Shown: positions 32,639 through 59,870 of the stretch, one piece after another
How positions within the stretch are numbered: position 1 is the stretch's first letter
Layout of the letters: every line of letters begins with the position of its first letter
Assembly (NCBI GenBank): GCA_963793265.1
Contig: CAWBZI010000002.1
Coordinates: 96,001 to 160,000 of the forward strand
Reading direction: 5' to 3'
From: an uncultured cyanobacterium
Lineage (GTDB): Bacteria > Cyanobacteriota > Cyanobacteriia > Phormidesmidales > Phormidesmidaceae
Length of the DNA stretch: 64,000 bases
Program-made: the position numbers and the translations under genes
The notes under the pieces: model-generated
What the model was told of the DNA's origin: nothing
The model's input: only the letters and a program-made list of their open reading frames with translations
Database searches by the model: none

Positions 32639-35362
32639 ATGTCGATGCCTCAAAAAAATCTGCGATTGCGCCTTCTTAAGTTTTGCTCGCTAGCCTGCGC
32701 CACTTGGCTGAGCGTATGCCTGTTTCACGGCTCAGCCGCTCGTGCCAATCCGCCCGCCACCTTGGCAGCTAGCCCAGCCATTTCACAACAAACCATTTCA
32801 CAACAAACCATTTCACAAGCAGATCCAGCCTCGCTAGAGCAGCGGGGAAAAGCACGCTACGAAGCCGGTTACTTTACAGAAGCCGTTGAGCTTTTACAGC
32901 AGGCCATTCAGACTTATCGGCAGCAGGGAGAAACGCTGCATCAGGCGATCGCACTTAGCAACCTAGCGCTTACCTACCAGCAGCTAGGCAACTGGCCGCA
33001 GGCCAACAACACCATTCAACAAAGCCTTATCCTCTTAGCTGATGCCGCTGGTCAGCCTGCAAATCGCTCGTCAGCGATCGCTCAAGCGCTAGACATTCAA
33101 GGTCAGCTGCAAATAAATCAGGGCCAGGCTGAACAAGCGTTGACGAGCTGGCAGCAGGCCGCTGACTATTACAAACAGATCAATGCCACCAGTCGCCTGA
33201 CCAAAAATCAAATAAACCAGAGCCGCGCGCTGCAAACCCTGGGGTTCTACCACCAGGCGCTGAGCTTGCTGAGTGAGCGATCGCAAGCATTAGCCGCTCA
33301 GCCAGGCTCTTTGAACAAAGCCGCAGAACTCCGCAGCTTAGGAGAAGGGTTGCAGGCCGTTGGAAACTTACAAGAAGCGGAGGCTCGGCTGCTAGAGAGC
33401 TTAGCGATTACTCAGCGACTAACTCACCTATCCGACCCCGGTCAGGCAGTCGAGGCGATCGCCCTGACGCAGCTTAGCTTAGGCAATACAGCACGCGCAC
33501 AGCAAAACACAGCCGCCGCACTTGACTGGTATCAGCAGGCAGCAGCGATCGCAAACTCAACGGCAACGCGGCTACAGTCCAACCTAAATCGTCTGAGCCT
33601 GCTCGTCGAGGCTGCTCAACCTGCTCAGGCTCAATCTGCTCAGGCCCAGTCTCTGATCCCTGAGGTTCAACAGCAGCTAGCAGCCCTCCCGCTTAGCCGA
33701 ACCGCCGTCTATGCGCGCATAAACTTAGCCAGCAGCCTCAGCAAAACAACAGATGTCTCGTCTTCTTTAGAAGCTGCCACACTGCTTTCTACCGCCGCTA
33801 AGCAAAGCGAACAGCTCGGCGACAGGCGGACTCAATCCTATGCAATAGGGCTGCTAGGGGGGCTTTACGAATCCACTCAGCAGTGGTCTGAAGCTGAAGA
33901 TTTAACGCGGCAAGCCCTACAGATAGCGACATCGGCTAACGCTGCTGATGTGACCTATTTATGGCAGTGGCAGCTAGGCCGTATTCTCAAGGCTCGCGCT
34001 GAGCCAGGTAGCGCTCAATCAGGAGATTTAGTAGAGAATAGAAAGGAGGCGATCGCTCTTTATACGCAGGCTATCAAAACGCTGCAATCTCTACGATTAG
34101 ACGTGGCCTCTATTAATTCAGATCAGAAGTTCTCCTTCAAAGAGAGCGTAGAACCTGCCTATAGAGAACAGATCGGGCTACTGCTTCATCCGATAGAAGG
34201 TGCGCCCAATCAAGCAGATTTGAGGGCCGCGCGAGATGCACTAGAGTCTTTGCAAACGGTTGAACTACAAAACTTCTTTCGCGAAGCCTGTCTGGACGTT
34301 CCTATCGCCATTGATCGCGTTGTAGAGCAAACCGAGGCGCTTTCTAAAAGCTCAAATAGCGCCCTTGCCGCCGTTGTTTATCCCATTGTTCTAGCCGACA
34401 GCTTTGAGGTTGTGCTGAAGCTGCCGAACCAAGATAAACTGCTTCACTACTCAACACCTATAGGGCAAAAAAGCGTAGAGAAAACGCTGCTTAAGCTGCG
34501 CGATCAAATCACTCAGCCTGATAGTCAACTGTCTGTTGAAGTGCTTTCTGAGCAGGTTTATGACTGGTTAGTTCGTCCTGCTGAACTAACCTTGCAGGAG
34601 AGTCATATTAGTACATTGGTCTTTGTCTTGGACGGTTTTTTAAAGAACATTCCTATGGCTGCGCTGTATGACGGCGATCGCTATCTGGTTGAAACCTACG
34701 GCATCGCGCTAACGCCCGGACTAGAGCTTGTCGATCCTAAACCGATGGAGCGAGAAAACATACAAATGCTGTTTGCCGGACTCAGTGAAGCCGTTGAAAA
34801 CTTTACGCCGCTCGTGGCTGTAGAACAAGAGCAAGCAGGGATTGCTGAAGAGATTTCAAAGACGACTGTTTTATTAAACGATTCGTTTACAGCTAAAGCC
34901 TTAGAGACTCAGGTTGAGCAAACGGCCTTTCAGGTTGTTCATTTAGCGACCCACGGCGAATTTAGCTCCGATCGCCAAAAAACCTTTATCCGCCTGCGCG
35001 ATCGCCGCATGACCACAGACGAACTCAGCCGCATTCTCAAAACCCGACAAACGCAGCCAAACCCGATTGAGCTATTAACGCTAAGCACCTGCGCAACCGC
35101 CGAAGGTGACGAAAGAGCCGCGCTTGGCTTAGCGGGCGTTGCCGTTCAGTCTGGGGCGCGCAGCACGCTTGCTTCTCTGTGGAGCATTGACGATCGCGCT
35201 AACGCTTTTTTGATGGTTGAGTTTTATCATCAGCTCATGCAAAACCCATCTTTCTCCAAATCCCAAGCCTTACGTCAGGCGCAGCTCAAGCTCGTCAACC
35301 ATCCCAACTACGCCCATCCTTCCTACTGGGCTCCTTACGTACTGCTAGGAAACTGGCTCTAA
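32639..35362 (+). CDS. Signal-peptide TPR + CHAT (caspase HetF-associated) protease
   Basis: Sec-like signal ending ARA, TPR repeats, VVHLATHG (His), LTLSTCATA (Cys), LASLWSI, HPSYWAPYVLLGNWL. Confidence 0.92.
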   Translation: MSMPQKNLRLRLLKFCSLACATWLSVCLFHGSAARANPPATLAASPAISQQTISQQTISQADPASLEQRGKARYEAGYFTEAVELLQQAIQTYRQQGETLHQAIALSNLALTYQQLGNWPQANNTIQQSLILLADAAGQPANRSSAIAQALDIQGQLQINQGQAEQALTSWQQAADYYKQINATSRLTKNQINQSRALQTLGFYHQALSLLSERSQALAAQPGSLNKAAELRSLGEGLQAVGNLQEAEARLLESLAITQRLTHLSDPGQAVEAIALTQLSLGNTARAQQNTAAALDWYQQAAAIANSTATRLQSNLNRLSLLVEAAQPAQAQSAQAQSLIPEVQQQLAALPLSRTAVYARINLASSLSKTTDVSSSLEAATLLSTAAKQSEQLGDRRTQSYAIGLLGGLYESTQQWSEAEDLTRQALQIATSANAADVTYLWQWQLGRILKARAEPGSAQSGDLVENRKEAIALYTQAIKTLQSLRLDVASINSDQKFSFKESVEPAYREQIGLLLHPIEGAPNQADLRAARDALESLQTVELQNFFREACLDVPIAIDRVVEQTEALSKSSNSALAAVVYPIVLADSFEVVLKLPNQDKLLHYSTPIGQKSVEKTLLKLRDQITQPDSQLSVEVLSEQVYDWLVRPAELTLQESHISTLVFVLDGFLKNIPMAALYDGDRYLVETYGIALTPGLELVDPKPMERENIQMLFAGLSEAVENFTPLVAVEQEQAGIAEEISKTTVLLNDSFTAKALETQVEQTAFQVVHLATHGEFSSDRQKTFIRLRDRRMTTDELSRILKTRQTQPNPIELLTLSTCATAEGDERAALGLAGVAVQSGARSTLASLWSIDDRANAFLMVEFYHQLMQNPSFSKSQALRQAQLKLVNHPNYAHPSYWAPYVLLGNWL

Positions 35363-35399
35363 TAGTCAGCTTTCTGATGGTGTCGCGGCTAACCCATGA

Positions 35400-35439
35400 C
35401 AAATGTCATAGCTTCAATGCGAGTCATCTATGACATTTG
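35400..35439. promoter_or_regulatory. Inverted repeat upstream of caspase-lipase gene
   Basis: caaatgtcatag-N16-ctatgacatttg, overlapping the palindrome ATGACAAATGTCAT. Confidence 0.5.
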
Positions 35440-35634
35440 CGATGAATAAATGAGTGTTTGTCAAAATGCGGTTGCCAGTCAGTTTTTGTGCTTTATATTG
35501 AAAAGAGAACAGATTTCAAAAAGAGAATATTGCACCAGCAGAGAAAACACCGTAACTGCATCAGGGCTCATTCTCTTCACCTATACAGCATTGGAACCTA
35601 TCTGGGACTTATTCAAGTTCTTTAAGCATTCACC

Positions 35635-36222
35635 ATGACCCATCATCTCTATGCTCTACTGGTTGGTATTAATGAGTACGATAGGCGATCTGGCATCTCT
35701 TCACTACAGGGATGCACCAATGACGCCAACGCAATGAAAGCCTATCTGGAAGCTCGGGTTGCTAGCGACAAAACGCAGCTACATACCAAAATGCTGCTCA
35801 ATGAGCAGGCCACCCGGCAGGCAATTATTAATGGCTTTAGAGAGCATTTACAGCAGGCAAAAGCGGGCGATACCGTTCTCTTTTACTATGCAGGACACGG
35901 CTCTCAAGACAAAACACCAGAAGAGTTTTGGCCAACCACGCCTAGCAGACTTAATGAGACATTAGTATGCCACGATAGCCGCACGCCTGACGTTTGGGAT
36001 TTGGCAGATAAGGAACTCTCTAAGCTGATTGCAGAAGTGAGCCAGCAAAATCCTCATATTGCAATCGTGCTGGACTGTTGCCATTCAGGATCGGGGACTC
36101 GCAGTGATGAAAGAGCGGTGTTTAAAAGAGAACGACACCAATGGATCAGCGCGATCGCCCAGCTAGCAGCTTTTTGGTATCGGTTCAAGAATTGGAACAA
36201 ACGGAAAGAGAAAAATCCCTAA
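35635..36222 (+). CDS. Caspase-like (peptidase C14) p20 domain; N-terminal part of a frameshifted/split gene
   Basis: ALLVGINEY, LQGCTND, YYAGHGS, VLDCCHSGSGTR. Confidence 0.88.
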   Translation: MTHHLYALLVGINEYDRRSGISSLQGCTNDANAMKAYLEARVASDKTQLHTKMLLNEQATRQAIINGFREHLQQAKAGDTVLFYYAGHGSQDKTPEEFWPTTPSRLNETLVCHDSRTPDVWDLADKELSKLIAEVSQQNPHIAIVLDCCHSGSGTRSDERAVFKRERHQWISAIAQLAAFWYRFKNWNKRKEKNP

Positions 36223-39200
36223 CCTCTACACGCGCTCGTAGCCTCGATTTTTCAACAACAGGATGGCATTTGCCACAGGGGCGTCATGTGTTGATGGCAG
36301 CCTGTCGCGATGTTGAAGAGGCCAGTGAGTATCGTGCTCATGGAGAGCCCTGCGGCGCATTCTCCCACTTTTTGCTAGACACACTGCAAAGAACAGATAG
36401 CACACTGACTTACCGAGATCTTTTTAACGCAACCGCTGCTAAAACGCGAGCCAACGTATCAGCTCAGGCACCTCAGCTAGAAGCGCCCTATCTCGAAGAC
36501 CTTGAACAGCTTTTTTTAGGCGGACTGGTTGAGCCTTTCCCGCCTTACTTTACGCTCGCGTATTTGCCTGAACTCGGCTGGTGTGTTAACGGCGGCGCGC
36601 TGCATGGTGTTCAGCCACCGCTTAATAATGAAGCAACACAGCTAGCGCTGTTCTCTATCGAAGCTCAGCCAGAGAATCTCCATCGGTTAGAAGGTGCGAT
36701 CGCCAACGCTACCGTCACCGACGTACAGCCACACCTCAGCCAAATTACAACAGAGGCTGAGCTAGATACTGGCTTAACGTACAAAGCGATCATTACCTAC
36801 TTACCGGTGCCGCCGCTGAACGTTGTTTTAAAAGGAGATACCGAGCGCCTCGAAATACTTCGTCAGGCCATGCAAACGCCAACTGCCGCCTCTTCGAGCT
36901 ATCTCAAAGAAGTAACAGAGATTGCAGCAGCAAACATTTGCGTCACTGCTCATTCGTCGGGATATGTGATTGAACAATCGCAAGCGCAGTCAAGAGCGAT
37001 CGCAGTCGTTGAAGCGGCTGTTGAAAATGGGGCTCGGATCCTAGATAGTGCTGATAGTGTCGTTCGTTTGCTAGCGCATATTGCTCGATGGACAGGCGTT
37101 GCTGAGCTAGCGCCACCGCTAGGCAATCAGCTACCGGCTAACGCGGTAGAGCTTCAGATTTATGATGAAGATTGGCTTGTACAAGGCGAGCAGATACAGC
37201 TTGAATACGAACAGCACGCACAGCAGTCGCGTCCGCCAAGCTTTAGAGCCAAGCTGATTAATCATAGCGATCGCCCGCTCTACTGCGCGCTGCTCAACCT
37301 AACCGAAGAGTACTCAGTCAGCGCCCCTTTCTTTGGCAGTGGCGGCACCTGGTTGAACGCACATAGCGAAGTTTGGGTCACCGTTGCAGGCGCAACTCAG
37401 CTCAGCGACCTAATTCCGACCACGGTTCCTCAACGGCTATGGGAGCAGGGTGTAAGTGAATATCAAGATCGGCTGAAGCTGATTGCTAGCACAGCAGAGT
37501 TTGATCCCACTGTTCTGTTGCAAAACAAAATTGGTCAGGCTGAGGCGATCGCACAAAGAAGCATCGCTGTATCGAAAGACAATCTGTTTCGCCAGTTTGC
37601 CAGTCAGACAGCCAGTCAGACAGCCTCTCGTGATATTGGCATGGCCGAAGCGGTTGAGACTGTAGATCAGTGGATGACCAGTCAGCGGCTCATCACAACC
37701 AGACGACCGCAGCCGGACGTGCAAATATCGGCAGAAAATACTGTTTCTTTGGCAACAGCAGATGCGAGTAGAAGCATAGAACGGATCGCCATTCGCCCTC
37801 ATGCTCAGCTCAAAGCAAAAGCGAGACTTGTGAGTGCTGCTCAGACCACGCGAAATGCAAATGTTCCAGGCTTACCACCACTGCTTAGAGAACAGACTCA
37901 GCCTCTGGTGTTCGCCGCGCGTCGTAGCGTGTCATCTGCTCTAGACGCATTAGAACTCAGTGAAATCGATAGTGCAGATTCAGTAACGCCCAGCAATCCG
38001 CTGACGTTAATCATAGATGCACCGCTGGCACCAGGAGAATCTGTTCTGCCGGTTACCTACGATGGTGAATTCTTCGTGCCGCTAGGATATGGTCACCGCC
38101 GGGGCGACCAGCAAACTGAAGTTGTACTTCATCACCTTCCTGAACACGCTGCGCCAGCCGATTCTGACGAAAGCGGCAAGAGAGGGATTAGCAGCGCGCT
38201 CCAGATTGTTTTCAGAAAGATAGCGAGTCAGACGTTGGGTACAACGCTCAGTCAGAAGCTAGGCATTTTTTTTGAATATCCCATTCTGGCCTCTGTAGAA
38301 AAAGAGCATGGGCAAAATGATTTGCTTTATACCACTGATACTGATGCGATCGCAACGCTTGTCGCCAAAGCCGAGAACATCGCCATTTACATCCACGGCA
38401 TTACAGGTAATACAGAATATATGATGCCAAGCATTCAGACAGCTTGCATTGAGATGTCAGGCCAAGCTCGCCCCGTCAGTGACCTGTACGATCTGGTATT
38501 AACCTACAACTATGAGAGTCTCAATACCTCTATTGCTCAGAGTGCTGTTCAGCTCAAGCAAAAGCTAGCCGCTGTTGGCATTCTGCCTGGGCACAACAAA
38601 ACAGTTCACATCGTAGCGCACTCTATGGGCGGTCTTATTAGCCGCTGGTTTGTTGAACAAGAAGGCGGTAAAGAGATTGTTCAGCATCTGATAATGCTGG
38701 GCACACCCAACGCCGGATCGCCCTGGCCAGTTGTGCAAGCCGGACTCTTTAAGTCGCTTAGCTTTGCCCTCAATGGCCTGGCTACGGTGGCCTGGCCGCT
38801 GTCTCTTATTGGCGGCGTCCTAACAGCGCTCGAAGCAATCGATATTGCGCTAGATGAAATGGATCCTGGATCGGAGCTGCTAGCGCACTTGGCCGAAAGT
38901 GAACCGCCGATTCCCTACAGCATCGTAGCGGGTAATACTAGCCTGATACCAGTAGATGAAAAGGCCAAACTAAGAGATCGGCTCGCGCAAAAGCTGAACA
39001 AGCTCGCTGAGCTTCCTTTTTTGAAAGAAGACAATGACGTGGCAGTCTCTGTCAGCAGTATTCGACATGTGCCTGCGGGCAGACTCCACGCGCCCCAAGT
39101 TCGCGAGGTGGCCTGTAATCACATGGTTTACTTTATCGATCCGGCGGGGCTATCTGGGCTCAGTTGGGCCATCAATAGAGCCTTTGCGATGACCAAAAAA

Positions 39201-39224
39201 CAGCTTCAGAGTGCGACTCACTGA
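36141..39224 (+). CDS. Continuation of caspase gene: p10-like region, linker domains and C-terminal alpha/beta hydrolase (lipase-like)
   Basis: HVLMAACRDVEEASE...GAFSHFL...QAPQLE (p10-like); IHGITG, AHSMGG, LGTPNAGS, NDVAV, CNH. Overlaps the upstream ORF in the -1 frame. Confidence 0.85.
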   Translation: MDQRDRPASSFLVSVQELEQTEREKSLTSTRARSLDFSTTGWHLPQGRHVLMAACRDVEEASEYRAHGEPCGAFSHFLLDTLQRTDSTLTYRDLFNATAAKTRANVSAQAPQLEAPYLEDLEQLFLGGLVEPFPPYFTLAYLPELGWCVNGGALHGVQPPLNNEATQLALFSIEAQPENLHRLEGAIANATVTDVQPHLSQITTEAELDTGLTYKAIITYLPVPPLNVVLKGDTERLEILRQAMQTPTAASSSYLKEVTEIAAANICVTAHSSGYVIEQSQAQSRAIAVVEAAVENGARILDSADSVVRLLAHIARWTGVAELAPPLGNQLPANAVELQIYDEDWLVQGEQIQLEYEQHAQQSRPPSFRAKLINHSDRPLYCALLNLTEEYSVSAPFFGSGGTWLNAHSEVWVTVAGATQLSDLIPTTVPQRLWEQGVSEYQDRLKLIASTAEFDPTVLLQNKIGQAEAIAQRSIAVSKDNLFRQFASQTASQTASRDIGMAEAVETVDQWMTSQRLITTRRPQPDVQISAENTVSLATADASRSIERIAIRPHAQLKAKARLVSAAQTTRNANVPGLPPLLREQTQPLVFAARRSVSSALDALELSEIDSADSVTPSNPLTLIIDAPLAPGESVLPVTYDGEFFVPLGYGHRRGDQQTEVVLHHLPEHAAPADSDESGKRGISSALQIVFRKIASQTLGTTLSQKLGIFFEYPILASVEKEHGQNDLLYTTDTDAIATLVAKAENIAIYIHGITGNTEYMMPSIQTACIEMSGQARPVSDLYDLVLTYNYESLNTSIAQSAVQLKQKLAAVGILPGHNKTVHIVAHSMGGLISRWFVEQEGGKEIVQHLIMLGTPNAGSPWPVVQAGLFKSLSFALNGLATVAWPLSLIGGVLTALEAIDIALDEMDPGSELLAHLAESEPPIPYSIVAGNTSLIPVDEKAKLRDRLAQKLNKLAELPFLKEDNDVAVSVSSIRHVPAGRLHAPQVREVACNHMVYFIDPAGLSGLSWAINRAFAMTKKQLQSATH

Positions 39225-39295
39225 GCAGCGCTCAGATACAATCAGATACAACCTTTCCAACACACACGTTCAAACACACCAACACTCAAAACATC

Positions 39296-40042
39296 ATGAA
39301 ACTCATCACCACAGCCGACACCTATCTCAAAGCACAGCCTGCTGAGACTAACCAGCTTCAGTCTCAAAACAAACCAGAACTTCTTATTCCTATCAAGAAA
39401 GGAACAGCGTTAGAAGTTGCTGAACATTTCTTCTACGAAGGTAGCAGCGATACTCAAGCAGACAATCATATTTTCGTTCAGCTAGCTCAGCCATTTGCAG
39501 ATCAACAAAACCTGAGTTGGTTTGTAGAAAATCCTCATATCAGGATAGAAAGCTCCGAATTAAAAGACGAGCCCGCGCCAAAGCTAACTAGAGGCGTTGA
39601 CTACGGAAGCGATATTCATTTGCCCGGCATTAGCCGCCCGGTTGGCGTTAACGAGCCTATCTACCACGAGCCCAACCCTTCTCACTTTACCTGGAGTGAA
39701 CTGACAAAAGGCGGTACGCGAATTCCTGAAAACGATGCTATCACGCAGCGCATTGTCAGACTTTGCAAGTATATGGACGGGGTTCGAGAATTCTTGGGTA
39801 ACAAGCCGATTACGATAAATTCAGGCTATCGAGATCCTGATTCTAACTGGGCTGTACATGGAGCCTCTGATTCTCGGCACTTATATGGCGATGCCGTTGA
39901 CTTTTGGGTAGAAGGAATGGACGTAGAAGAGACTTTTCAACGGCTAAAAAGCTACCATCGCACAGGCGGGCTGGCTGTTGGCAACGGGTTTGTTCATTTA
40001 GACATGCGCCCTAGCGATAGATTGATAACGTGGAATTACTAG
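39296..40042 (+). CDS. Peptidase M15A family (D-Ala-D-Ala / peptidoglycan metallopeptidase)
   Basis: INSGYR, SRHLYGDAVD, FVHLDMR; no signal peptide. Confidence 0.88.
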   Translation: MKLITTADTYLKAQPAETNQLQSQNKPELLIPIKKGTALEVAEHFFYEGSSDTQADNHIFVQLAQPFADQQNLSWFVENPHIRIESSELKDEPAPKLTRGVDYGSDIHLPGISRPVGVNEPIYHEPNPSHFTWSELTKGGTRIPENDAITQRIVRLCKYMDGVREFLGNKPITINSGYRDPDSNWAVHGASDSRHLYGDAVDFWVEGMDVEETFQRLKSYHRTGGLAVGNGFVHLDMRPSDRLITWNY

Positions 40043-40100
40043 AAACCTTAATTCTGCTAAATACTGACGGAAAATACAACATTTTTTGAAGGATAAAGAC

Positions 40101-44430: not shown

Positions 44431-44468
44431 AGGAAGGTCAAAAGGAAACTCTAAAAAGGAGGTCGGCG

Positions 44469-48533: not shown

Positions 48534-48565
48534 TAAATGTCACGGCCTGACAATGACATTTATCA
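48531..48565. promoter_or_regulatory. Inverted repeat upstream of caspase-STAND-WD40 gene
   Basis: tgataaatgtca-N11-tgacatttatca. Confidence 0.5.
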
Positions 48566-51600: not shown

Positions 51601-52613
51601 GCGCCTCTGACGACGGCACGTTTCGACTTTGGAGCGCGCAGGGCAGGCCGATACAGACCTTTGAAGCGCAGCAGGGAAACCTTCACGCTATTCGGTTTAG
51701 CCCCCAGGGCAATCGCCTGGCAACAGCCGGTGAAGACGGTCGAATTCTCCTGTGGAACTTAAAGGGTGAGCCCTTGGCAATTTTGACAGGGCATCAGGGA
51801 CGAATATGGAGCCTGAACTTTAACGCGCAGGGGCAGCTTGGCAGCGCTTCAGGAGATGGGACGATACGTCTGTGGTCAGAAGTGGGGCAAACGTTAGAAG
51901 TGTTGCAGAGTCATCAGGGGCCGGTGAGAACGGTTAGTTTCGCCTCTAATTCTCAACAGTTAGTAACCAGTGGTGATGACAGTACAGTCCGCCTGTGGGA
52001 TTTCCAAAGGCAGCAGGCGGCGGTGCCGGATTATATTAAAGATGAGATGGACGGAAGTTTGGTTGCGATCAGTCCTGATGGGCAGCAGACGGCTACCGCC
52101 GGAGACGATGGAACTGTAAGATTGTGGAGCTTTGAAGGTGAGCTGCTAGGCCAGTTTGGAGGACACTTGGGAGCGGTGAAAAGCGTTGCTTTTAGCCCTG
52201 ATGGCGAGCAGCTTGCCAGTGGTGGAGAAGATGGTACCGTCCGTCTGTGGAACACGCAGGAGAATAGTCAAGACTTTCAGAGCGCCGTCTTCCAGGTTCA
52301 GAGTGCAGCGGTGAATTCAGTTTCGTTTCAGCCTACCGGAGGGCTTCTCGCTTCTGGCGACAGCGCGGGTAACGTGCAGCTATGGGATCTCAATGCTAAA
52401 GAATTGTTTGCTAGCTGGCAGGCGCATCCGGGCTCAGCCATTCGCGATATTAGAATAGGCGATAGAGAGATTGTGACTGCAGCAGAAGGGGATGCCTATG
52501 TGTGGCCTTTAGAAGATTTTGGCCAGCTTCAGGAAAGAGGATGCGGGCTGATAGAGAACTATCTGAGCCATGCAGAAGGTAGAAGTGGAGGCGATCGCAA
52601 CCTTTGCTCGTAA
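48642..52613 (+). CDS. Caspase (C14) + nSTAND1-type NTPase + TM + WD40 repeats
   Basis: LYFAGHG, ILDCCFAG; NPYRGLKAF, GASGSGKSS, VIDQFEE, GALPLL; TM IAIATILGLSGLSIAAIAG; WD repeats. Confidence 0.92.
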   Translation: MSEFSHNLAVVVGIDRYTNGIAPLQTAVSDVRAIAHQLQQAHHYQVLSYINEQATLANLQHLLTVILPQQVKPDSRLLLYFAGHGIALNGDEQPEGYLIPQDATTGNTSGYLSMPMLQAALSKLPCRHFLGILDCCFAGMFRWSSTRDISYVPDVIYKERYDRFIQDAAWQIITSAAYDQRALDSLSIETDRGQVGNHSPFATALLEALSGEADLYPAAKKSISAGDGVITATELYLYIRDRVEPIAAAREQRQTPGLWPLRRHDKGEYIFLSPEHPLNLPPAPVLSPSKNPYRGLKAFEPADSDLFFGRQRLSQQLFKAVSQQPLTVVLGASGSGKSSLAKAGLVAKLMQQARSEAVSGVVDHWQVLPVLRLGDDPFSALQQMLSEEGEGQETLTDYVNDWRRRVPGCRVVLVIDQFEELITLGASEPERESFLEMLNRTIATHPNQLRLVLTLRSDFEPQLQSTALKPYWHDARFIVTPMSRADLRAAIVQPAAARVIHFQSDDAEHSLVDRLIDEVAEMPGALPLLSFTLSELYLKYLERQNEAKRKGQIIERTITEADYRELGGVARSLTQRADEEYETLVARDPKYALTIRNMMLRLVAVNGAQIARRSVLLEEFDYPTIENQRVQTVIQQFTAARLLVKGEGADGRIYVEPAHDALVLGWQRLLAWQQIEKADLILQRRLTSAAQEWRSRPAKEAPKFLWHANPYLDVFQQMLKINSHRLNKLETTFVQKSLLRRRQNASWRWRIAIATILGLSGLSIAAIAGRRDALVGQISTAQNAADVNFRAGQSLDALRDSLVAAQIFEQPLLQIFRPDQQLRSRVTGMLQTMVYATPERNRLIAHQGTVRSDTSPNGEFVVSAGEDDRVVVWNQQGQKQAQWTAQQEQIYSVRISLDSQTIATGGADGSVRLWNAQGQLLTELKGHRDIVRGISFSPDGRSLATAGQDKAIRLWDLQQQQIRATLAGHKAAVWSIAFSPNGQQLASASDDGTFRLWSAQGRPIQTFEAQQGNLHAIRFSPQGNRLATAGEDGRILLWNLKGEPLAILTGHQGRIWSLNFNAQGQLGSASGDGTIRLWSEVGQTLEVLQSHQGPVRTVSFASNSQQLVTSGDDSTVRLWDFQRQQAAVPDYIKDEMDGSLVAISPDGQQTATAGDDGTVRLWSFEGELLGQFGGHLGAVKSVAFSPDGEQLASGGEDGTVRLWNTQENSQDFQSAVFQVQSAAVNSVSFQPTGGLLASGDSAGNVQLWDLNAKELFASWQAHPGSAIRDIRIGDREIVTAAEGDAYVWPLEDFGQLQERGCGLIENYLSHAEGRSGGDRNLCS

Positions 52614-52705
52614 AAGCTGCATAAGTTTATGCGCCCCTATCCTAGTTATAGCTAACCCCTAATAAATATCTAATGGCCGCAAGCGGCTACAGAGGTGCCT
52701 ACTTT

Positions 52706-54169
52706 ATGAACGCTCTATCTAAATACTGGTCTAAATATTGGACGATGTGGCGTATTAGCCCTAGCGACGATCGGTATCGATATCAGCCTAAGGGCATCGC
52801 ACCCGCCAAAGCCTTCTGTAGCCAACAGGTAAATAGAAGTGAAATAGAGGCTAAGCCACTGACTATCAGCGTGCAAAAGATCTTGCTTTCTCAGTTTCAA
52901 GAAAATGGTAAATTTTCAACTGATGATTCTTCTGACCTACTAAAGCAAGCCTACGCGGGACTTTGCTTACGCTGCTACGTATCTGCGCCGATTCTCAAAG
53001 CCTGTCAGAAAATAGACGCCTTGTTTTCGAGCAACAAGTCTTTTAGCTATCAAGACCTGCTGCCCTTTGTGCTCAATGATGACGGGCGATCGCTGATCGT
53101 AGTCGATGACAAGCAGACTCAACAAACGGTGAGTGAAGCTGGTGAGCTAAAACCTTCTGCTTTTAAGGTGTTTTCCGTTGAGGTGCTGAAAACTTATAGG
53201 GGCGATCGCGCCAATAGCATGAGCCTGGACAACTGGACTTTTTTGCGAACCAAGCAGCAGCCAGACCTGAAGCGTTTTCTAACCGAGTTTGGCTTTCAGC
53301 CCTTCAGCGATTGGACGCTTTTGAACCGCATACAGGTCAATCAGCTAGAGCGACTTTCAAAAAGAGAGCAGGCGATTGTAGCCGCGTTTCATCAGGTGTA
53401 TCGGCGTGATCGCAGAGCCCGCAAGCAAGTGAGCCGCTGCAAAGATCCCACGCCCGCGCAGCTAGCCGAAATGAACCAGCAGCTCCAGCGAAAGGTTATG
53501 GCTTTTGATAAAAACACCGAACTGCTAAAAGCACTCAAGCAGATAGCAGAGCAGCTCAGGACGTTCGACATTTGGCAGGCCCGAGAGCCGCTAGAAGTGA
53601 GGGATACAGAGACAGGCGACTACACAATCAGAGCAGATCTACCTGCAAATACTATCGATGAATCGACGGTAGAAGAGCAGGAATTTATAGCCTATTTACA
53701 GCAGCAGCTCATGATTGCGCTCACCCATGCCGTTGAACAAGCCGTTCAAAGCAAGATTGCAAAATTAAGGAAAAGTAAAAGATACTCGCCCTTTGCAGAC
53801 GCTTACCTGATCGGCCTTCAGCGCTATTATCAAAAAGGGCTATCGCTCAAAGATATTGGGCCGCAGCTAGGGATGAACAATTGGGATCAAACCCGGCGCA
53901 TCCTCAACCCAGGAGAACTGCTTACTCAGGTGCGGCAGCTTACCGTACAACAGCTATTAGCAGCTATTCTAAAAGCCGCTCAGGACAAAGGACTAGCTGC
54001 TACGCCTGCCGAACCTACCTATCTACGCACCTTAATGGAACAGATAGAGACATTTGTTGACAGCAAACTCTTTATTGAAGCCGCCTCCGAAATCAAAGCT
54101 GGGAAGAGTCGCTCTTTAGACAGTGATTATGCAAAGGCTCTGATTTGCTATATCGAACAGTTCAGTTAA
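52706..54169 (+). CDS. Hypothetical protein, divergent sigma-70-like/HTH
   Basis: GAGGT RBS; region-2-like VLKTYRGDRANSMSLDNW; C-terminal HTH-like YYQKGLSLKDIGPQLGM; directly upstream of DUF1822. Confidence 0.6.
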   Translation: MNALSKYWSKYWTMWRISPSDDRYRYQPKGIAPAKAFCSQQVNRSEIEAKPLTISVQKILLSQFQENGKFSTDDSSDLLKQAYAGLCLRCYVSAPILKACQKIDALFSSNKSFSYQDLLPFVLNDDGRSLIVVDDKQTQQTVSEAGELKPSAFKVFSVEVLKTYRGDRANSMSLDNWTFLRTKQQPDLKRFLTEFGFQPFSDWTLLNRIQVNQLERLSKREQAIVAAFHQVYRRDRRARKQVSRCKDPTPAQLAEMNQQLQRKVMAFDKNTELLKALKQIAEQLRTFDIWQAREPLEVRDTETGDYTIRADLPANTIDESTVEEQEFIAYLQQQLMIALTHAVEQAVQSKIAKLRKSKRYSPFADAYLIGLQRYYQKGLSLKDIGPQLGMNNWDQTRRILNPGELLTQVRQLTVQQLLAAILKAAQDKGLAATPAEPTYLRTLMEQIETFVDSKLFIEAASEIKAGKSRSLDSDYAKALICYIEQFS

Positions 54170-54201
54170 ACAACGCGCCAGCTTTAACAGAATTTGACGC
54201 T

Positions 54202-54230
54202 CGAAAACGCCCGAAAACGCCCGAAAACGC
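54202..54230 (+). repeat. 10-bp tandem repeat (cgaaaacgcc x ~3)
   Basis: Seen directly in the intergenic sequence. Confidence 0.8.
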
Positions 54231-54241
54231 TTAGTGCAATC

Positions 54242-55297
54242 ATGGCAATCTCTCTTATAAACACTTCTCACTTACGCCTCTCTTTACCTGAACCCCTCTG
54301 GCTAGAGCCGGAATATTTTGAGCAAGCAAACGCAGACAGTGAACATCTGCGAAGCGAGCCTGATAGGTGGAAAGCCTACCTTAACAGCTTGAGCCTGTCT
54401 GCCTTTGAAGCTTGGGCTAAAGAGAATCTTCCGGCTGCGACTATCCGAGCGATCGCACCCCAAACAGCAGCGACCAGACATTTCAATAGGCATCTCAACA
54501 TAGAAGGCTTTAAAACATGCTTGATAACAACTGAGCACGTTCTAGACGAGACGATAAGATTCCCCGAGAGCATTATCCAACAGCCTGAGCTAGCAGCGCA
54601 TCTCTATGTTGTCATCGAAGTTTTAGAAGAACAGCAGGAAGCCGTCATAAGAGGCTTCTTACGCTATGACGAACTCATACAGCAGCTTAGCCGGGTTACC
54701 CAGCCGTCTGCCTCCCAAGCGTCTGACCAACGACTGCTGCCCCTGTCGCTTTGGGATCAGGAGATCAATCACCTTCTAGGCTACGTTCAGTATTCTCATC
54801 CGAGCACCGTTCAGCTACCAGAAGCAGCCGTCCAGCCAGCCGCCGCTGCTACCAAAGAGAGCATTTTCACTCGATTAAGCCAGTGGTTAGACAACGCCTT
54901 AACGGGAGAATGGCAGTCGATCAATCGACTGATTAATCCACAGGCAAGTTTAGCTTGGAACGCTCGCCAAAACACACTGGGTACGAAAGGTGGCAAACTG
55001 CTTAACTTAGGAATGCAGATAGATCAGCACCCAGTTGCGCTAATTATTACAGTGGTTCCTGAAGAGGAGAGGATTGGGGTTAATGTTCAGGTTTTGCCGA
55101 CAGGAGAAGACTTGGTTTTGCCAATGGGCCTAACGGTGACGCTGCGATCTAGTGCAGACGTGGTTTTGCAGACGGTGACGGCTAGAGCGCAGGATAATTA
55201 CATTCAGCTCAGGCCGTTTAGAGGTAACCCTGGCATTCGCTTTGTCGTGGAAGTTGTGCTGAATGGCGTTACAGTAAGCGAAGCGTTTGAGCTGTAG
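54242..55297 (+). CDS. DUF1822 family protein
   Basis: RWKAYLNSL, AHLYVVIEVLEE, LSQWL...WQ, KLLNLGMQ, ARAQDNYIQL, EAFEL end. Confidence 0.85.
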   Translation: MAISLINTSHLRLSLPEPLWLEPEYFEQANADSEHLRSEPDRWKAYLNSLSLSAFEAWAKENLPAATIRAIAPQTAATRHFNRHLNIEGFKTCLITTEHVLDETIRFPESIIQQPELAAHLYVVIEVLEEQQEAVIRGFLRYDELIQQLSRVTQPSASQASDQRLLPLSLWDQEINHLLGYVQYSHPSTVQLPEAAVQPAAAATKESIFTRLSQWLDNALTGEWQSINRLINPQASLAWNARQNTLGTKGGKLLNLGMQIDQHPVALIITVVPEEERIGVNVQVLPTGEDLVLPMGLTVTLRSSADVVLQTVTARAQDNYIQLRPFRGNPGIRFVVEVVLNGVTVSEAFEL

Positions 55298-55298
55298 G

Positions 55299-58200
55299 GT
55301 GGATAAAACAGTTGTTATTAACTTAGGAAAGGGTTCTCTTAAGCAAGGCTTTCCTCATATCACGGCTCGCCTATCTGTGGGCAAGCGATCGCAGACCGAA
55401 CAGAGAGTGGGTAGCCTGCCACCTGCACCTGCACTTATAGAAATCTACCGTATTTGGCAGTCTACTTATCGAGCGCTGTCTAACCGATTGAAGCTGCGAT
55501 CGCCTTCTAAAAACCAAGCTCAAAAGCCATCAGAAGACGAGCTGGAAATAGACCCAGTTGGCATCACCCAAGTATCCCAGCAGAGCTTTGAAGCGCTGAG
55601 CGGGCAGCTTAAGCAGGCCGTGAATGACTGGCTTGATGCCGATGGACTGCGGGTGTTAGAACAAGGGTTGCGATCGCAGCTAAACCCCACCGACACCATT
55701 CGAGTCATCTTTGAAACCGACAATGACTTACTTAGGCGTTTGCCCTGGCACTGCTGGGATTTCTTTCAAGACTACCCTCATGCCGAAATGGCGCTAAGCC
55801 AGCTTACGTACCAGCGAGCAGAGCCCATCCACGCTCAGCGACAGCAGGAACAAGTTAGAATTCTAGCTATTGTTGGCGACCGTCGAGGCATTGATATAGA
55901 GCCAGAGCGCCTGGCCCTTCAATCCCTACCAGATGCTGATATCACCTTTTTAGCGAGCCCTTCTCGTCAGCTATTTGACAGGCACCTGTGGGATAAACGC
56001 GGCTGGGATATTCTCTTTTTTGCAGGCCATAGCCAAACAGAGGGCCAAACCGGGCGGCTGTATATTAACGAGGATGATGTTCATAACAGCTTGACGGTTG
56101 AACAGTTAGAGGAAGGATTGAAGGGGGCGATCGCTCGTGGCCTACAGCTTGCTATTTTCAATTCCTGTGATGGGGTGGGCCTAGCTCAAGCGATCGCCCA
56201 GCTACAGATTCCTCAAGTCATTGTAATGCGAGAGCCCGTGCCCAACCGGGTAGCGCAGACCTTCTTACAGTATTTTTTGACGGCTTTTGCAACTGAGAGT
56301 CTTACTTTATATTCAGCCGTACGGCAGGCCAGAAGACAGCTACAAGGATTAGAGAACGAATTTCCAGGAGCCTCTTGGCTGCCAGTACTGTGTCAAAATC
56401 CTGCTGCTGAGCCGTTTTCATGGCTTCAACTGGGCGGCGCTTCAGCGTGTCCTTACCGAGGACTATCCACTTTTAAAGAAGCAGACGCTCATCTTTTTTT
56501 TGGGAGAGAAAAGGTAAAAGAAGATCTTTTGCTAGCGGTCACGCAGCAGCCGTTTGTTGCAATCGCCGGGCCTTCTGGCAGCGGTAAATCTTCTGTTGTG
56601 TTTGCAGGGCTGCTACCCCGATTAGAACAAACTCGTAAAGACTGGCAGATCGTTTCTACTCGCCCCGGCAGCGATCCTTTTCAAAGCTTAGCCGAGGCTT
56701 TAGGCTCAACAGGCAGTGAAGGAAACGCTGCCGAACAGTCACGGTTAAAGGTACTAAAATTAGCCGTTAGCTTTCAACAAGATGAACAGGCGTTGCAGAA
56801 TGCGATCGCTGATCAAAATCAACAGAAGAAAGGCCGATTGCTGTTAATCATCGATCAGTTTGAAGAACTCTATACGCTTTGCCCCTTTGAAGAGCGACAG
56901 CCTTTTGTAAATTTGTTATTGAATGCCGTGCAGTTCGCGCCCGCTTTCACCCTGCTCATAACTTTGCGCGCAGACTTCTATGGTGAAGCCCTGAGCGATC
57001 GCCGCTTAAGTGATGCCTTGCAAGCTGGTGGATACAACCTGGGGCCGATGAATAAGGCAGAGTTGGAATGTGCGATCACCCAGCCCGCTGCTAAAAAGCG
57101 AGTGACCCTAGAGCCTGGCCTTACCGATCAGCTTATTCAGGCAACCGCTAGTCAGACCGGACGCCTGCCACTGCTAGAATTTACGCTCACCGAGCTGTGG
57201 AAGCAACAGCAAAATAGTTGTTTAACCCATCAGGCTTATCAGGCAATCGGTGGCATAGAAAAAGCGCTGGCCAATCATGCCGAGGCCGTTTATGAAAAGC
57301 TGCCTTCAGGCGATCAGCAGCGCGTACAGCAGATTTTTGTGCAGCTCGTCGAACCTGGTCATAACAACCAGGCCACTCGCCGCATTGCTAGCCGGGATGA
57401 GGTCGGTGATAGCAACTGGAATTTAGTCTCAGAGCTAGCATCCGCTCGGCTAGTGGTTACCAATCGCAATCCGCTGACTGAGAAAGAGAGCGTTGAGATT
57501 ATTCATGAGGCTTTGATTTTAAGCTGGGGTCGCCTGCGCTATTGGATGCAGGTAGACGGAGATTTTCGGCGCTGGCAGGAAGCGCTGCGGCAGGCTAGAA
57601 GACAGTGGGAGAAAAGCGAAAGAGAAGAAGCCGGACTGTTGAGGGGTAGATCGCTTGAGACTGCAAAAGATTGGTACGAGCGTCGCTCAGACGAGCTGAG
57701 TACAGCAGATAGGGCGTTCATCGAAAGCAGTTTAGCGGCTCAGCAAAAGCTAAAGGTGCAACAAAAGCGTCGTCGGAGCCTAACGTTAAGTGCGCTATGT
57801 GCAGGACTAGCCATCACCTCCGCCCTGGCGGCTGTTGCCTGGTGGGGAAGCCGACGCGCTCAAATCAGTGAAGTAAGCGCTATTACAGCTTCATCGAACG
57901 CTCTTTTTGCGTCGGATCAGCGCTTAGACTCGCTTGTTTTGGCCCTGCAAGCTGCGCAAAAGCTGGACAATTTAAGGTGGGTAGGGCGTGAGACTCGCCG
58001 AGACGTTGAAACAGTTCTTCGCCAGGCCATCTCTCAAGCTGACGAGAGAAATCGCTTGATCTCTCATCAGGCGGGGGCTACTGCAGTTGTTTTTAGTCCA
58101 AACGGACAGCTCATCGCTTCAGCAAGCCAGGAGGGCACGATAAAGCTGTGGCAATCAGACGGCACCTTGTTAGCAACCCTGGAAGGCCATAGCTCAGAAA

Positions 58201-59870
58201 TTTGGGGATTGGCAATTAGCCCGGATGGTCAAACGCTCGCTTCTGCTAGCGATGATAGAACGGTCAAGCTATGGAAGACGGACGGTACTCTAATGGAGAC
58301 GCTTACGGGTCATACCGCAGCAGTCAACGCGATCGCCTTCAGTCCAAACGGAAAGCTAATGGCGGCTGCGAGCCAGGATGGGTTTGTTCAACTTTGGCAG
58401 CGCAACGGTAAATTGATTAGGCGGTTTGAGGCGCATAAGCAGGTGAAAATAGATGCGATCGCCTTTAGCCCTGATGGTCAAAGTCTCGTAACTGGCGGCG
58501 GTGACGGACTTATCAAGCTGTGGAATCCTATGGGTGCGCTACAAAAGGTGCTTGAAGGTCATACCGATAGCGTTCGAGATCTTGCATTTAGCCCGGATGG
58601 TGAAACGCTTGCTTCTGCTGCAGCAGACGGGCTTGCGCAGCTTTGGAATATAAAGGATGGTTCCAGGCAGGTTTTAGAGGAACACTACAATACGGTGTAT
58701 GCGATCGCCTTTAGCCCAAACGGCCAGCGCATTATCTCTGCTAGCGACGATACAACCCTGCGCCTCTGGAAACGCGATGGCACTTTGCTATCTATTTTTA
58801 GGGGTCACAGCAACGGCGTTACCGACAGTGCCTTTAGTCCCGATGGGCAAACGGTAGCCTCAGCCAGCTTCGATGGCACCGTTAGACTTTGGCAGTGGCA
58901 CAATCCCCTACTCACCGTTTTAGACAGTCACAAAGATACGGTCTTAGACGTCGCCTTTAGTCCTAACAATCAGCTAGTTGCTTCCGGCAGCGCAGACAGT
59001 ACGGTTAAGCTATGGAACCCCAACGGCATGCTAATTCAAACGCTGAGAGGCCATACGGACACAGTATACGGCCTCACTTTCAGTCCAAACGGCCAGTTTA
59101 TCGCTTCCGCCAGCAAAGACAAAAGCGTTCGGCTTTGGCAGTCAGACGGCACGCCAATCTCCACGCTTACAGGCCATACGGACTGGGTTACCGACGTTGC
59201 CATAAGCCCTAATAGCCAAACAATTGCCTCGGCTAGTGACGATGGCACTGTCAAACTATGGCAGCGTAACGGTGAGCTAATCACCATATTAAACGGACAT
59301 ACCGAAGGCGTAAACGCGGTTGCGTTTAGCCCAGACGGCCAGATCATTGCTTCAACCAGTGATGATAGAACTATTCGCCTCTGGCGGTCTGACGGCACTA
59401 GCATTGCAACACTAGAAGGACACACCGCAGGCGTCAACGGCATTGCTTTCAGCCCAAATGGTCAGATCATCGCCTCGGCCAGTGATGATAGAACCATTCG
59501 GCTCTGGCAACCAGACGGTACTTTTATCACCGCTCTAGAGGAGCATCAGAATGCTGTTATTGACGTTGCCTTCAGCCCAGACAATAAGCGAATCGCTTCG
59601 AGTAGTGCAGACGAAACCGTTCGGCTATGGGAGCCAGACGGATCTTTGCTAACGACTTTTACCGGCTACCGGAGCGGTATAAACGGTCTTGCCTTCAGCC
59701 CCAATGGTGAGAAACTAGCAACGACTACTGTAGATACAACAGTTTCAATATGGGCGTTAGAACCTGGAATGCGCTCAAGTGCCCTGTTGGAAATAGGCTG
59801 TCAGCAGGTAGCGGATTATCTAAAGAGCAATCGCGCGCTAGCGCACGCTGAGATAACTGTTTGCGACTAG
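55299..59870 (+). CDS. CHAT + nSTAND1-type NTPase + TM + WD40 repeats
   Basis: LFFAGHS, IFNSCDG; CPYRGLSTF, GPSGSGKSS, IIDQFEE, LPLLEF; TM after KRRR; ~14 WD repeats. The GTG start is 1 bp after the DUF1822 stop. Confidence 0.92.
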   Translation: MDKTVVINLGKGSLKQGFPHITARLSVGKRSQTEQRVGSLPPAPALIEIYRIWQSTYRALSNRLKLRSPSKNQAQKPSEDELEIDPVGITQVSQQSFEALSGQLKQAVNDWLDADGLRVLEQGLRSQLNPTDTIRVIFETDNDLLRRLPWHCWDFFQDYPHAEMALSQLTYQRAEPIHAQRQQEQVRILAIVGDRRGIDIEPERLALQSLPDADITFLASPSRQLFDRHLWDKRGWDILFFAGHSQTEGQTGRLYINEDDVHNSLTVEQLEEGLKGAIARGLQLAIFNSCDGVGLAQAIAQLQIPQVIVMREPVPNRVAQTFLQYFLTAFATESLTLYSAVRQARRQLQGLENEFPGASWLPVLCQNPAAEPFSWLQLGGASACPYRGLSTFKEADAHLFFGREKVKEDLLLAVTQQPFVAIAGPSGSGKSSVVFAGLLPRLEQTRKDWQIVSTRPGSDPFQSLAEALGSTGSEGNAAEQSRLKVLKLAVSFQQDEQALQNAIADQNQQKKGRLLLIIDQFEELYTLCPFEERQPFVNLLLNAVQFAPAFTLLITLRADFYGEALSDRRLSDALQAGGYNLGPMNKAELECAITQPAAKKRVTLEPGLTDQLIQATASQTGRLPLLEFTLTELWKQQQNSCLTHQAYQAIGGIEKALANHAEAVYEKLPSGDQQRVQQIFVQLVEPGHNNQATRRIASRDEVGDSNWNLVSELASARLVVTNRNPLTEKESVEIIHEALILSWGRLRYWMQVDGDFRRWQEALRQARRQWEKSEREEAGLLRGRSLETAKDWYERRSDELSTADRAFIESSLAAQQKLKVQQKRRRSLTLSALCAGLAITSALAAVAWWGSRRAQISEVSAITASSNALFASDQRLDSLVLALQAAQKLDNLRWVGRETRRDVETVLRQAISQADERNRLISHQAGATAVVFSPNGQLIASASQEGTIKLWQSDGTLLATLEGHSSEIWGLAISPDGQTLASASDDRTVKLWKTDGTLMETLTGHTAAVNAIAFSPNGKLMAAASQDGFVQLWQRNGKLIRRFEAHKQVKIDAIAFSPDGQSLVTGGGDGLIKLWNPMGALQKVLEGHTDSVRDLAFSPDGETLASAAADGLAQLWNIKDGSRQVLEEHYNTVYAIAFSPNGQRIISASDDTTLRLWKRDGTLLSIFRGHSNGVTDSAFSPDGQTVASASFDGTVRLWQWHNPLLTVLDSHKDTVLDVAFSPNNQLVASGSADSTVKLWNPNGMLIQTLRGHTDTVYGLTFSPNGQFIASASKDKSVRLWQSDGTPISTLTGHTDWVTDVAISPNSQTIASASDDGTVKLWQRNGELITILNGHTEGVNAVAFSPDGQIIASTSDDRTIRLWRSDGTSIATLEGHTAGVNGIAFSPNGQIIASASDDRTIRLWQPDGTFITALEEHQNAVIDVAFSPDNKRIASSSADETVRLWEPDGSLLTTFTGYRSGINGLAFSPNGEKLATTTVDTTVSIWALEPGMRSSALLEIGCQQVADYLKSNRALAHAEITVCD

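Follow-up and report, generated by a model that had tools for sequence, protein, structure and literature searches.

The window analysed here, a 64-kb stretch from the genome of an uncultured cyanobacterium of the Phormidesmidaceae (G000, 5.68 Mb in 7 contigs), carries an island of eleven genes, g1 to g11, within positions 32591-59870, and every long gene of this island lies on the + strand, as the first-pass annotation had stated. Rather than one fixed cascade, it is a mosaic of known modules at the level of the genus. Based on its domains, motifs, gene order, conservation and predicted folds, we infer how ligand binding, cleavage, trigger and outputs could be connected, and we lean slightly towards a hub of receptor-proteases around a protease-gated sigma switch (g9, g10 and g11), with parallel receptors, lytic outputs and a role in biotic defence.

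The core of sigma factor, DUF1822 and protease

The gene g9 (52673-54169, +) is described as a long, divergent factor of the sigma-70 family, which is supported by its predicted fold and by the domains of its homologues. In the form of 487 amino acids (aa), a sigma2-like region (aa ~20-196), a helix-turn-helix (HTH, ~200-295) and a region-4-like segment (~365-410) follow each other in order. The structural model (predicted local distance difference test, pLDDT, 89.7; predicted template modelling score 0.54; 72 sequences) matched sigma factors best, with Z of 7.0-7.8 (4x8k: Z 7.5, root-mean-square deviation, rmsd, 2.7, 104 aligned), values below 8 that are not decisive alone, and the top Foldseek matches were sigma subunits as well, weakly (E 0.02 or more). 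Sigma70_r4 was matched in 28 of the 72 aligned homologues and a feature search with g9 led to sigma-70 clusters; the first search gave 449 homologues, and the best 120 of these had no Pfam domain listed. The transcription switch that had been proposed for this locus is thus supported, in that g9 is modelled as a divergent sigma-70 factor and g9-g10-g11 correspond to a system already described.

The next gene, g10 (54194-55297, +), belongs to DUF1822 (PF08852, E 9e-51) and is a candidate anti-sigma factor. DUF1822 comprises 3408 clusters at 50% identity, its genes are present in 41 of 61 genomes of the class, and six of the seven DUF1822 loci of the own genome are directly followed by a CHAT gene. 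Across the cyanobacteria, the comparison took in the 78 best of the 317 g9-type loci from species genomes; DUF1822 was found just downstream of the sigma gene in 76 of them, and both misses were at contig edges. Among the 75 loci with a DUF1822 open reading frame, a same-strand gene followed within 700 bp in 41 and none in 34. This slot was occupied by a clan-CD protease in 32 of the 41 cases (20 EACC2-CHAT, one of them a cut fragment typed by tblastn, 9 TPR-CHAT, 2 g6-type CHAT and 1 g2-type C14) and by unrelated genes in the other 9. Because DUF1822 accompanies nearly every sigma gene and the third gene varies, sigma and DUF1822 are a fixed unit, next to a protease slot that is filled by the island's four kinds of protease or empty. 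The profiles of the long and mid-length (~400 aa) sigma partners of DUF1822 match at 97%, and between those of the long and short partners no significant match was found.

Some variants of this unit were also observed. An S51 peptidase, not a clan-CD protease, follows DUF1822 at L184, L205 and L209. In the own genome, a 713-aa protein with an N-terminus that is HTH-like by eye (G000:C7:321074-323215) ends in the C-terminal part of DUF1822 and directly precedes an EACC2-CHAT gene, and a second unit, composed of sigma, DUF1822, EACC2-CHAT-CHASE2 and DUF928 genes with a TPR gene at its head, lies at G000:C2:181576-188035 (L164). The counterpart of this second unit in G020 directly adjoins the island, in divergent orientation.

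In the g10 model (pLDDT 83.8, 41 sequences), a low-confidence linker joins an alpha/beta domain to a beta-sandwich. Its six best structural matches were all PD-(D/E)XK nucleases, i.e., I-Ssp6803I (Z 8.2, rmsd 3.1, 118 aligned), D212 (7.9), Hjc (7.2 and 6.9), DpnI (6.8) and NhoI (6.7), with Z near the background ceiling, and Ig-like domains came next, at the C-terminus; Foldseek found the Ig-like part only, weakly, and listed no PD-(D/E)XK nuclease. DUF1822 is therefore predicted to consist of a PD-(D/E)XK nuclease fold, degenerate in g10, a linker and an Ig-like domain, not of TPRs, which conflicts with the label given to the family in 2021. The catalytic D...(D/E)xK is not kept in g10, which has RHLNI...FKTCL at those strands. 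Of 150 family representatives, 30 retain a D..ECR variant, which is also present in 13 of 17 DUF1822 proteins paired with short sigma factors, but in 0 of 24 paired with long or mid-length ones, g10 included (g10 counted twice; 3 rows unclassed), and g10 is for this reason probably inactive as a nuclease. In the linker, Arg258 (367-aa numbering; codon 54965-54967, +) is the predicted P1 residue of a CHAT cut. It is kept in 144 of the top 150 family representatives, mostly after F, L or T, and the residue that follows it varies; 72 of 73 partners of long sigma factors have it too, the remaining one having Lys.

A cut of this kind is described for Anabaena PCC 7120, where HetF cuts PatU3 after R117 in TNYR-S (PMC9457339) and where the sigma factor HetZ is bound and inhibited by PatU3 (PMC13342950). 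The own genome has a true hetZ at G000:C1:964808, followed by a gene taken as patU by its position and YRS motif, for which no family model matched; hetZ, this patU-like gene, two further HetZ-related genes and a hetF-like gene are all present (G000:C1:964787-967205; C4:207146-208666; C6:356817-358013; C6:845832-848312). The corresponding Arg of the patU-like gene is present in each of 30 homologues; in a global profile alignment it falls, as a weak line-up, into one column with the linker Arg of DUF1822. In a blind feature search with PatU aa 235-405, DUF1822 clusters were the best named matches (0.84, 176 of 256 features, a lead-level score). The profile match of DUF1822 and PatU had an E-value of 0.026 over the whole length and a score of 24.3 (E 0.0019) for the C-terminal beta domain, where 40 column shuffles reached 16.7 at most; by sequence, no relative of solved structure was found for PatU, and only spurious weak rows for DUF1822. 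After its own paralogue, the catalytic region of HetF next matched g11 and other DUF1822-linked CHATs, which form one clade with support 100 in a quick tree.

The third gene, g11 (55287-59870, +), encodes an EACC2-like N-terminus, a CHAT protease (H248/C294), an nSTAND1 ATPase, a transmembrane (TM) helix (~57780-57836) and WD40 repeats. Its N-terminal 380 aa are common to proteins that end in nSTAND1-WD40, CHASE2, NB-ARC or other tails.

Receptor, protease and lytic genes of the island

Upstream of the core, g8 (48642-52613, +) would encode a membrane receptor-protease, composed of C14, nSTAND1, a TM helix (~50892-50948) and WD40. The gene g6 (42187-44430, +), with CHAT, TIR and an AAA_35 STAND ATPase, opens a paired-STAND module, and g7 (44409-48533, +), with AAA_35 STAND, a TM helix (~45834-45890), WD40 and TPR, is the second of the pair; the WD40 repeat of g7 is a 126-bp unit present 12.9 times with 79% matches (46151-47767). 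This tandem pair has at least 5 further tandem copies in the genome, as counted by BLASTP. The three CHAT and two C14 domains of the first-pass annotation were recovered with Pfam, CHAT in g1, g6 and g11 and C14 in g2 and g8. All five keep their His/Cys motifs, i.e., HLATHG/LSTC in g1 (H788/C834), FIGHG/LNAC in g6 (H74/C116), FAGHS/FNSC in g11, YAGHG/LDCC in g2 and FAGHG/LDCC in g8, but only four of the five genes are whole as assembled.

The exception is g2 (35635-39224, +), which encodes C14, a middle region and an alpha/beta hydrolase (DUF7379/PGAP1-like, AHSMG), ~1196 aa when open, and which is split in the assembly into frames of 195 aa and 1027 aa by a one-base frameshift near 36123. An extra base near 36123 was present in all four metagenome runs aligned (2 studies; 4 of 7 runs listed), and in the same-genus genomes G020, G023 and G157 g2 is a single gene of 1194-1214 aa. 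Since the open form is found in both, the frameshift is an assembly error or a strain lesion, and the gene is whole in nature. In-frame length variants of g2 also occur in the metagenome runs, 6 bases in and 12 bases out of a 12-bp tandem repeat, at window positions 36884 and 37599-37625.

The four STAND-type ATPases claimed before were confirmed, AAA_35 in g6 and g7 and nSTAND1 in g8 and g11. Their Walker motifs, said to be intact, are canonical in nSTAND1 (GxSGSGKS for Walker A and DQFEE for Walker B), but the Walker A of AAA_35 is without its first Gly, as it is in the orthologues. The g6 TIR domain (Pfam TIR_2) does keep its Glu, E292, which is also present in both orthologues compared. 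The usual Trp and Asp, which we take to be part of the TIR consensus, are replaced by Met and Ala in g6, so its NADase activity is not assured. In g7, g8 and g11, a hydrophobic helix after a basic (Arg/Lys) patch was found between ATPase and WD40 by Kyte-Doolittle hydropathy, and this helix is kept in 13 of 13 full-architecture orthologues, of 14 orthologues compared. Its conservation suggests that the propellers are probably outside the cytoplasm and that these proteins are single-pass membrane receptors, not cytosolic receptors of the NOD-like (NLR) type; the label "NLR-like" given earlier fits the effector-STAND-repeat layout and not the WD40 sensors, which lie beyond a membrane helix. The sensor ends are more variable than the effector ends, and one g11 homologue has everything after CHAT swapped.

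Among the other genes, g1 (32591-35362, +; dyad H788/C834) belongs to the TPR-CHAT clade and has an N-terminus that reads by eye like a signal peptide, so the protein is probably exported. In a quick CHAT tree, from which one CHAT (C7:224839) was omitted since the motif rule missed it, the CHATs of g1, g6 and g11 fall in three separate lineages. The gene g3 (39296-40042, +) encodes a peptidase of M15, a peptidoglycan peptidase family, and g5 (41206-42105, +) an endolysin-like protein with peptidoglycan-binding and glycoside hydrolase (GH) 19 domains, both without a hydrophobic leader. The gene g4 (40086-41168, +; 355-360 aa) matched no Pfam, NCBIfam or PADLOC family and no solved relative; a search at near lengths gave 37 homologues, of which all named ones are cyanobacterial. 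In G016, a fusion of M74, peptidoglycan-binding and GH19 domains and a protein-arginine deiminase lie between the g4 and g8 homologues (L128 9082-12881), and a deiminase of this kind is notable beside proteases that are predicted to cut after Arg.

The own genome encodes 35 CHAT/C14 domains (23 CHAT and 12 C14 matches), five of which fall in the 27.3 kb of the island where 0.17 would be expected, and this is the densest stretch of the genome, the non-overlapping runner-up holding 3. Paralogues of every module type are present elsewhere in the genome, which has 7 DUF1822 loci and 7 g6-type genes in addition to the CHAT and C14 matches. Named homologues are cyanobacterial and the nearest ones are labelled Phormidesmis. 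The GC (guanine plus cytosine) content of the island, 48-54%, is similar to that of its flanks and no tRNA was found in the window, so nothing points to a recent foreign origin. Rfam gave no match within 30000-64000, a sigma-70 promoter scan found no excess (10 versus 13.9 in shuffles), and terminator-like sites, in excess (33 versus 17.4), were mostly inside genes and were not used as evidence. Downstream of the island, g12 (59950-60705) has a C-terminal hydrophobic tail similar to that of g13 (60721-61824), which ends in a weak PEP-CTERM match, and a 1016-aa exoprotein of two-partner secretion starts at 61941-64000 (+) and runs off the window.

Distribution, shared palindrome and competing explanations

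The genus was sampled with 45 other genomes, ten of which have a close g9, and all ten neighbourhoods were examined. Six of the ten hold the same few modules near g9, in different orders: G020 has g2-g7 and then g9-g11, with g1 and g8 absent; G003 has g6-g7; G023 has g2 and g8, with g3-g7 absent; G155 has g5 and two g8, with g2-g3-g4 on another short contig; G015 keeps only g4 of g2-g8; and G157 has g2 and g4 ~10-13 kb away, inverted. In the stretches examined, none of g2-g8 was found beside g9 in G010, G017, G163 and G024 (the G024 contig ends inside g10), g1 was adjacent in none of the ten, and the full gene set was found in none. A scattering of the genes in relatives, which the first-pass annotation had named as an outcome that would refute it, was thus not seen inside the genus. 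The g4 gene is present in 9 of the 45 genomes; in 6 of them it has island-type neighbours and in the other 3 it has none. Among 50 loci with at least 8 kb upstream, a g2-type C14 was found in 4, a g8-type C14 in 4 and a paired STAND in 2, and three of the loci with these upstream modules are the closest relatives; a g1-type CHAT was within 10 kb in 17 of 78 sigma loci. The modules also occur together in some distant genera (L195, L207, L225 and L232), L195 having sigma, DUF1822, g2-type and g8-type genes. Since the modules recur in relatives without the full set and are uncommon outside the closest ones, the island is a recurring but variable assembly. In G163, unrelated metabolic genes are inserted inside the triad and g11 is inverted; a pair of genes for a thiamine pyrophosphate (TPP)-dependent enzyme and a flavin amine oxidase lies inside or beside the triad in G163 (L136 6805-10232) and G017 (L022 1992-5347).

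A palindrome, TGACAAATGTCA (35397-35408), lies in the leader of g2, which is conserved in G020 and G023, and is a candidate operator; two copies with one mismatch (48531-48542 and 48554-48565) lie upstream of g8. All three window sites with at most one mismatch therefore head g2 (one) or g8 (two), where the chance mean is 0.53 sites and one of 100 shuffles reached 3. Exact sites number 4 in the genome, each of them intergenic, and 39 sites lie within one mismatch, 20 of them intergenic (controls 7, 10 and 11); six of these are in the 51 kb around the island and four in a second cluster beside a NarL-type two-component pair. In relatives, the palindrome stands ahead of g2, g4, g11, a homologue of g3 or genes that have been inserted in the island. 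The palindrome is probably a response-regulator operator, and it is modest evidence for co-regulation of g2-g7 and g8-g11. It was also found upstream of the TPP-enzyme/flavin amine oxidase pair of G163 and G017 and, as an exact copy, upstream of the TPR gene of the second sigma/DUF1822 unit (L164). An exact copy further precedes a 549-aa gene with no Pfam family (G000:C2:162961-164607; L095 9962-11608, -), homologues of which flank the island in G015 and G016. Beyond this gene, 5-13 kb past the window, lies a run of genes (G000:C2:165000-172700; L095 11986-17184, L164 880-2658) for GH64 and GH17 beta-1,3-glucanases, a CAP protein, an astacin-like protease, a LysM-GH19 chitinase and a haem peroxidase, which recalls the antifungal pathogenesis-related proteins of plants and has a one-mismatch palindrome at C2:170688.

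In the reading that we favour, the hub would have grown at one site in the genus around the protease-gated sigma switch. The g11 protein would span the membrane with its WD40 propeller outside the cytoplasm, a topology suggested by its sequence; ligand binding would let nSTAND1 oligomerise and the CHAT become active, as expected from STAND biology. This CHAT may then cut g10 after Arg258, in the loose linker between the nuclease-fold and Ig-like domains, by analogy with HetF and PatU3, and the cut may free the sigma factor g9, just as the HetF cut of PatU3 after Arg117 frees the sigma factor HetZ. The g8 protein and the g6/g7 pair would be parallel receptor-proteases with their own sensors, g2, g3 and g5 would probably provide outputs that cut lipids and the wall, and g1 would be an exported TPR-CHAT with a loose attachment to the hub. 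As the palindrome lies upstream of both, an outside regulator, perhaps of the NarL/LuxR type, probably turns on the sub-operons g2-g7 and g8-g11 together; candidates are the NarL/LuxR regulators encoded at G000:C2:178592 and C7:460489. The likeliest trigger would be biotic, i.e., a phage, predator or competitor.

Several observations weigh against this reading. No result of the analysis shows a defence role: profile matching to the PADLOC 2.0 models, made without the system caller, gave domain-level matches to single models only (caspase, chat, ThsB-like TIR, TPR and the WD40 part of HEAT-ARM) and no full gene set; and the best-studied analogue, HetF/PatU3/HetZ, is developmental. The linker Arg could be structural, because it stays where no clan-CD gene follows DUF1822, as at the 34 of 75 loci without a same-strand gene in the next 700 bp (some of them contig ends) and at the 9 with a non-clan-CD next gene. 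The palindrome was noticed post hoc, shows little enrichment across the genus (45 exact sites versus 33 for a reversed control) and is absent from the islands of several relatives. DUF1822 and PatU match weakly, with a profile probability of 2-15% and a feature score below 0.9, and the margin of this match was small in a first control with 30 shuffles (22.9, E 0.0053, versus 21.4). No significant match was found between the g9-family and HetZ profiles (E 0.15), the EACC2 N-terminus did not match the HetF N-terminus (score 13.3, inside the shuffled range), and the quick tree leaves HetF and the EACC2 clade in an open fork without settling a sister relation.

The same mechanics could instead serve development or envelope remodelling, with sensing of contact or wall fragments, sigma-driven differentiation such as filament breakage or dispersal, and g3 and g5 as the hydrolases, which we regard as unlikely. 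The only tested cyanobacterial trio of CHAT, anti-sigma and sigma factor, as described in PMC9457339 and PMC13342950, controls division and differentiation, the predicted sensors face outward, other triads in the genome use CHASE2, and the nuclease-type residues are lost in g10 as in all 24 long- and mid-sigma DUF1822 compared. Against this stand traits of conflict genes, namely a patchy occurrence (close g9 in 10 of 45 genomes), module shuffling, repetitive WD40 sensors and a TIR fusion, and the own genome has housekeeping-like hetZ, patU and hetF elsewhere.

The single linked five-protease cascade of the first-pass annotation would have an activated CHAT cleave g8 and g2, after which the C14 proteases cut the sigma module, release the lytic enzymes and kill the cell. 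Activation of C14 by CHAT with a sigma factor downstream is described for Haliangium (bioRxiv 2023.06.23.546230), each of the island's four protease types directly follows DUF1822 somewhere, g2-g7 and g9-g11 stand in order in G020, and the palindrome is shared. The post-catalytic linker of g8 also carries WSSTR-D, kept in 4 of 5 g8 homologues, which resembles the [FWL]STR site of long-sigma DUF1822; this is a post hoc likeness, and the background count, whose pattern had been broadened to take in g8, provides no valid test of it. Self-processing at a linker Arg is a feature of orthocaspases, and the g8 Arg may be merely such a site. No relative holds all five proteases in the stretches examined, as G020, G023, G015, G010, G017, G163 and G024 illustrate, and g1 is probably in another compartment. 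As the full set is missing in relatives, the three CHATs are of three lineages, paralogues exist elsewhere and the upstream modules are mostly missing outside the genus, the cascade is unsupported and in our view improbable. About equally improbable is an insertion hotspot in which unrelated cassettes piled up and each module works alone without shared signalling: copies of every module type exist elsewhere, g4 stands alone in 3 of 9 genomes and metabolic genes interrupt the G163 triad, but the same modules recur in 6 of 10 genus genomes and in the distant L195, L207, L225 and L232, the genes overlap or stand close together, and the two sub-operons have the palindrome in common.

The hub of receptor-proteases also allows a wider proposal, which is possible but doubtful: DUF1822 would be a nuclease-derived anti-sigma factor that caspase-like proteases, once activated by their receptors, cut after a conserved Arg, islands of this type would fan in several interchangeable receptor-proteases onto one sigma factor, the cut might also free a nuclease in the D..ECR subfamily, and HetF-PatU3-HetZ would be a domesticated, unlinked copy of this immune-type module. 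If this is true, the 3408 DUF1822 clusters would mark uncharacterised proteolytic transcription switches. Filamentous cyanobacteria have dozens of caspase-like proteases and almost no known substrates, and the locus narrows the question to one protease (the g11 CHAT), one substrate (g10), one bond (after Arg258) and one readout (transcription by g9). Should this single step hold, a large DUF family would gain a function, its fold label would be corrected and heterocyst commitment would be tied to immune-type signalling.

Comparison with known systems

Neighbourhoods of an EACC2-caspase protein, an extracytoplasmic function (ECF) sigma factor and DUF1822 were described by Kaur, Iyer, Burroughs and Aravind in 2021 (PMC8195603). 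The expectation that the island would be novel if PADLOC gave no hit fails for this reason, the core having been published computationally. The g9-g10-g11 genes fit that system, the EACC2 name resting on the paper's description: both have a sigma gene, a DUF1822 gene and a protein in which a caspase-fold peptidase lies between a constant alpha+beta N-terminus and a variable C-terminus, STAND and repeats are among the C-termini listed there, and several copies per genome are described. They differ in that the island sigma is a long form of 487-498 aa without its own Pfam match, that g10 models as a nuclease fold plus Ig-like domain where PMC8195603 labels DUF1822 as TPR, that the island points to DUF1822 as the substrate where the paper proposes autoproteolysis, and that extra modules are gathered upstream. 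In the literature searched, in which most subscription papers are lacking, no link of DUF1822 to PatU or to a nuclease fold was seen. Cyanobacterial caspase-STAND-WD40 proteins and protease-gated defence sigma factors have likewise been published (PMC13581612, PMC11506125, PMC10907252, PMC7159879). The island as a whole is less surprising, its module types and their enrichment in multicellular bacteria being already published; new here are the DUF1822 fold and Arg site, the variable protease slot and the shared palindrome.

The SAVED-CHAT/PCaspase/PCc-sigma system (bioRxiv 2023.06.23.546230), in which CHAT is described as activating a C14 protease, Craspase with Csx29, Csx30 and CASP-sigma, and DdvA/DdvS (PMC11506125) are alike in having a CHAT or caspase-like protease that gates a sigma factor in a defence context. 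Unlike them, the island has no CRISPR, SAVED or cyclase genes and its activator would be a STAND-WD40 receptor, and in DdvA the anti-sigma and TPR-CHAT parts are described as one protein. The paired-STAND layout, an effector-ATPase gene followed by an ATPase-TM-repeat gene, occurs in at least 6 tandem pairs in the own genome, and the island copy differs by carrying CHAT and TIR as effector. Avs and bacterial Apaf-1-like STAND proteins (PMC13581612) share the order effector-STAND-repeat, a caspase-like protease at the N-terminus, a WD40 sensor and cyanobacterial hosts; the NLR-like layout with intact Walker motifs is found in one gene in g8 and g11 and split over two in g6/g7. The tested Avs are described there as cytosolic, whereas in g7, g8 and g11 a membrane helix separates the ATPase from the sensor.

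With HetF-PatU3-HetZ, the core would share a membrane-anchored CHAT of similar subtype (AGHS/A[IV]FNSC), a sigma gene followed by the gene of its inhibitor, and an Arg that is conserved in the linker before the C-terminal beta domain, for which the profile match is weak. On the other hand, hetF is unlinked and senses through TPRs, PatU gave no sign of the nuclease-fold domain in the alignment, and g9 has no significant profile match to HetZ in a genome with separate hetZ, patU and hetF. The g9 gene was accordingly rejected as a HetZ orthologue, having no NCBIfam HetZ match. Because g9 and HetZ, as well as the EACC2 and HetF N-termini, do not match and the CHAT tree leaves its fork open, g9-g10-g11 may be said to work like HetF-PatU3-HetZ, with possible partial homology, and not to be a member of that system.

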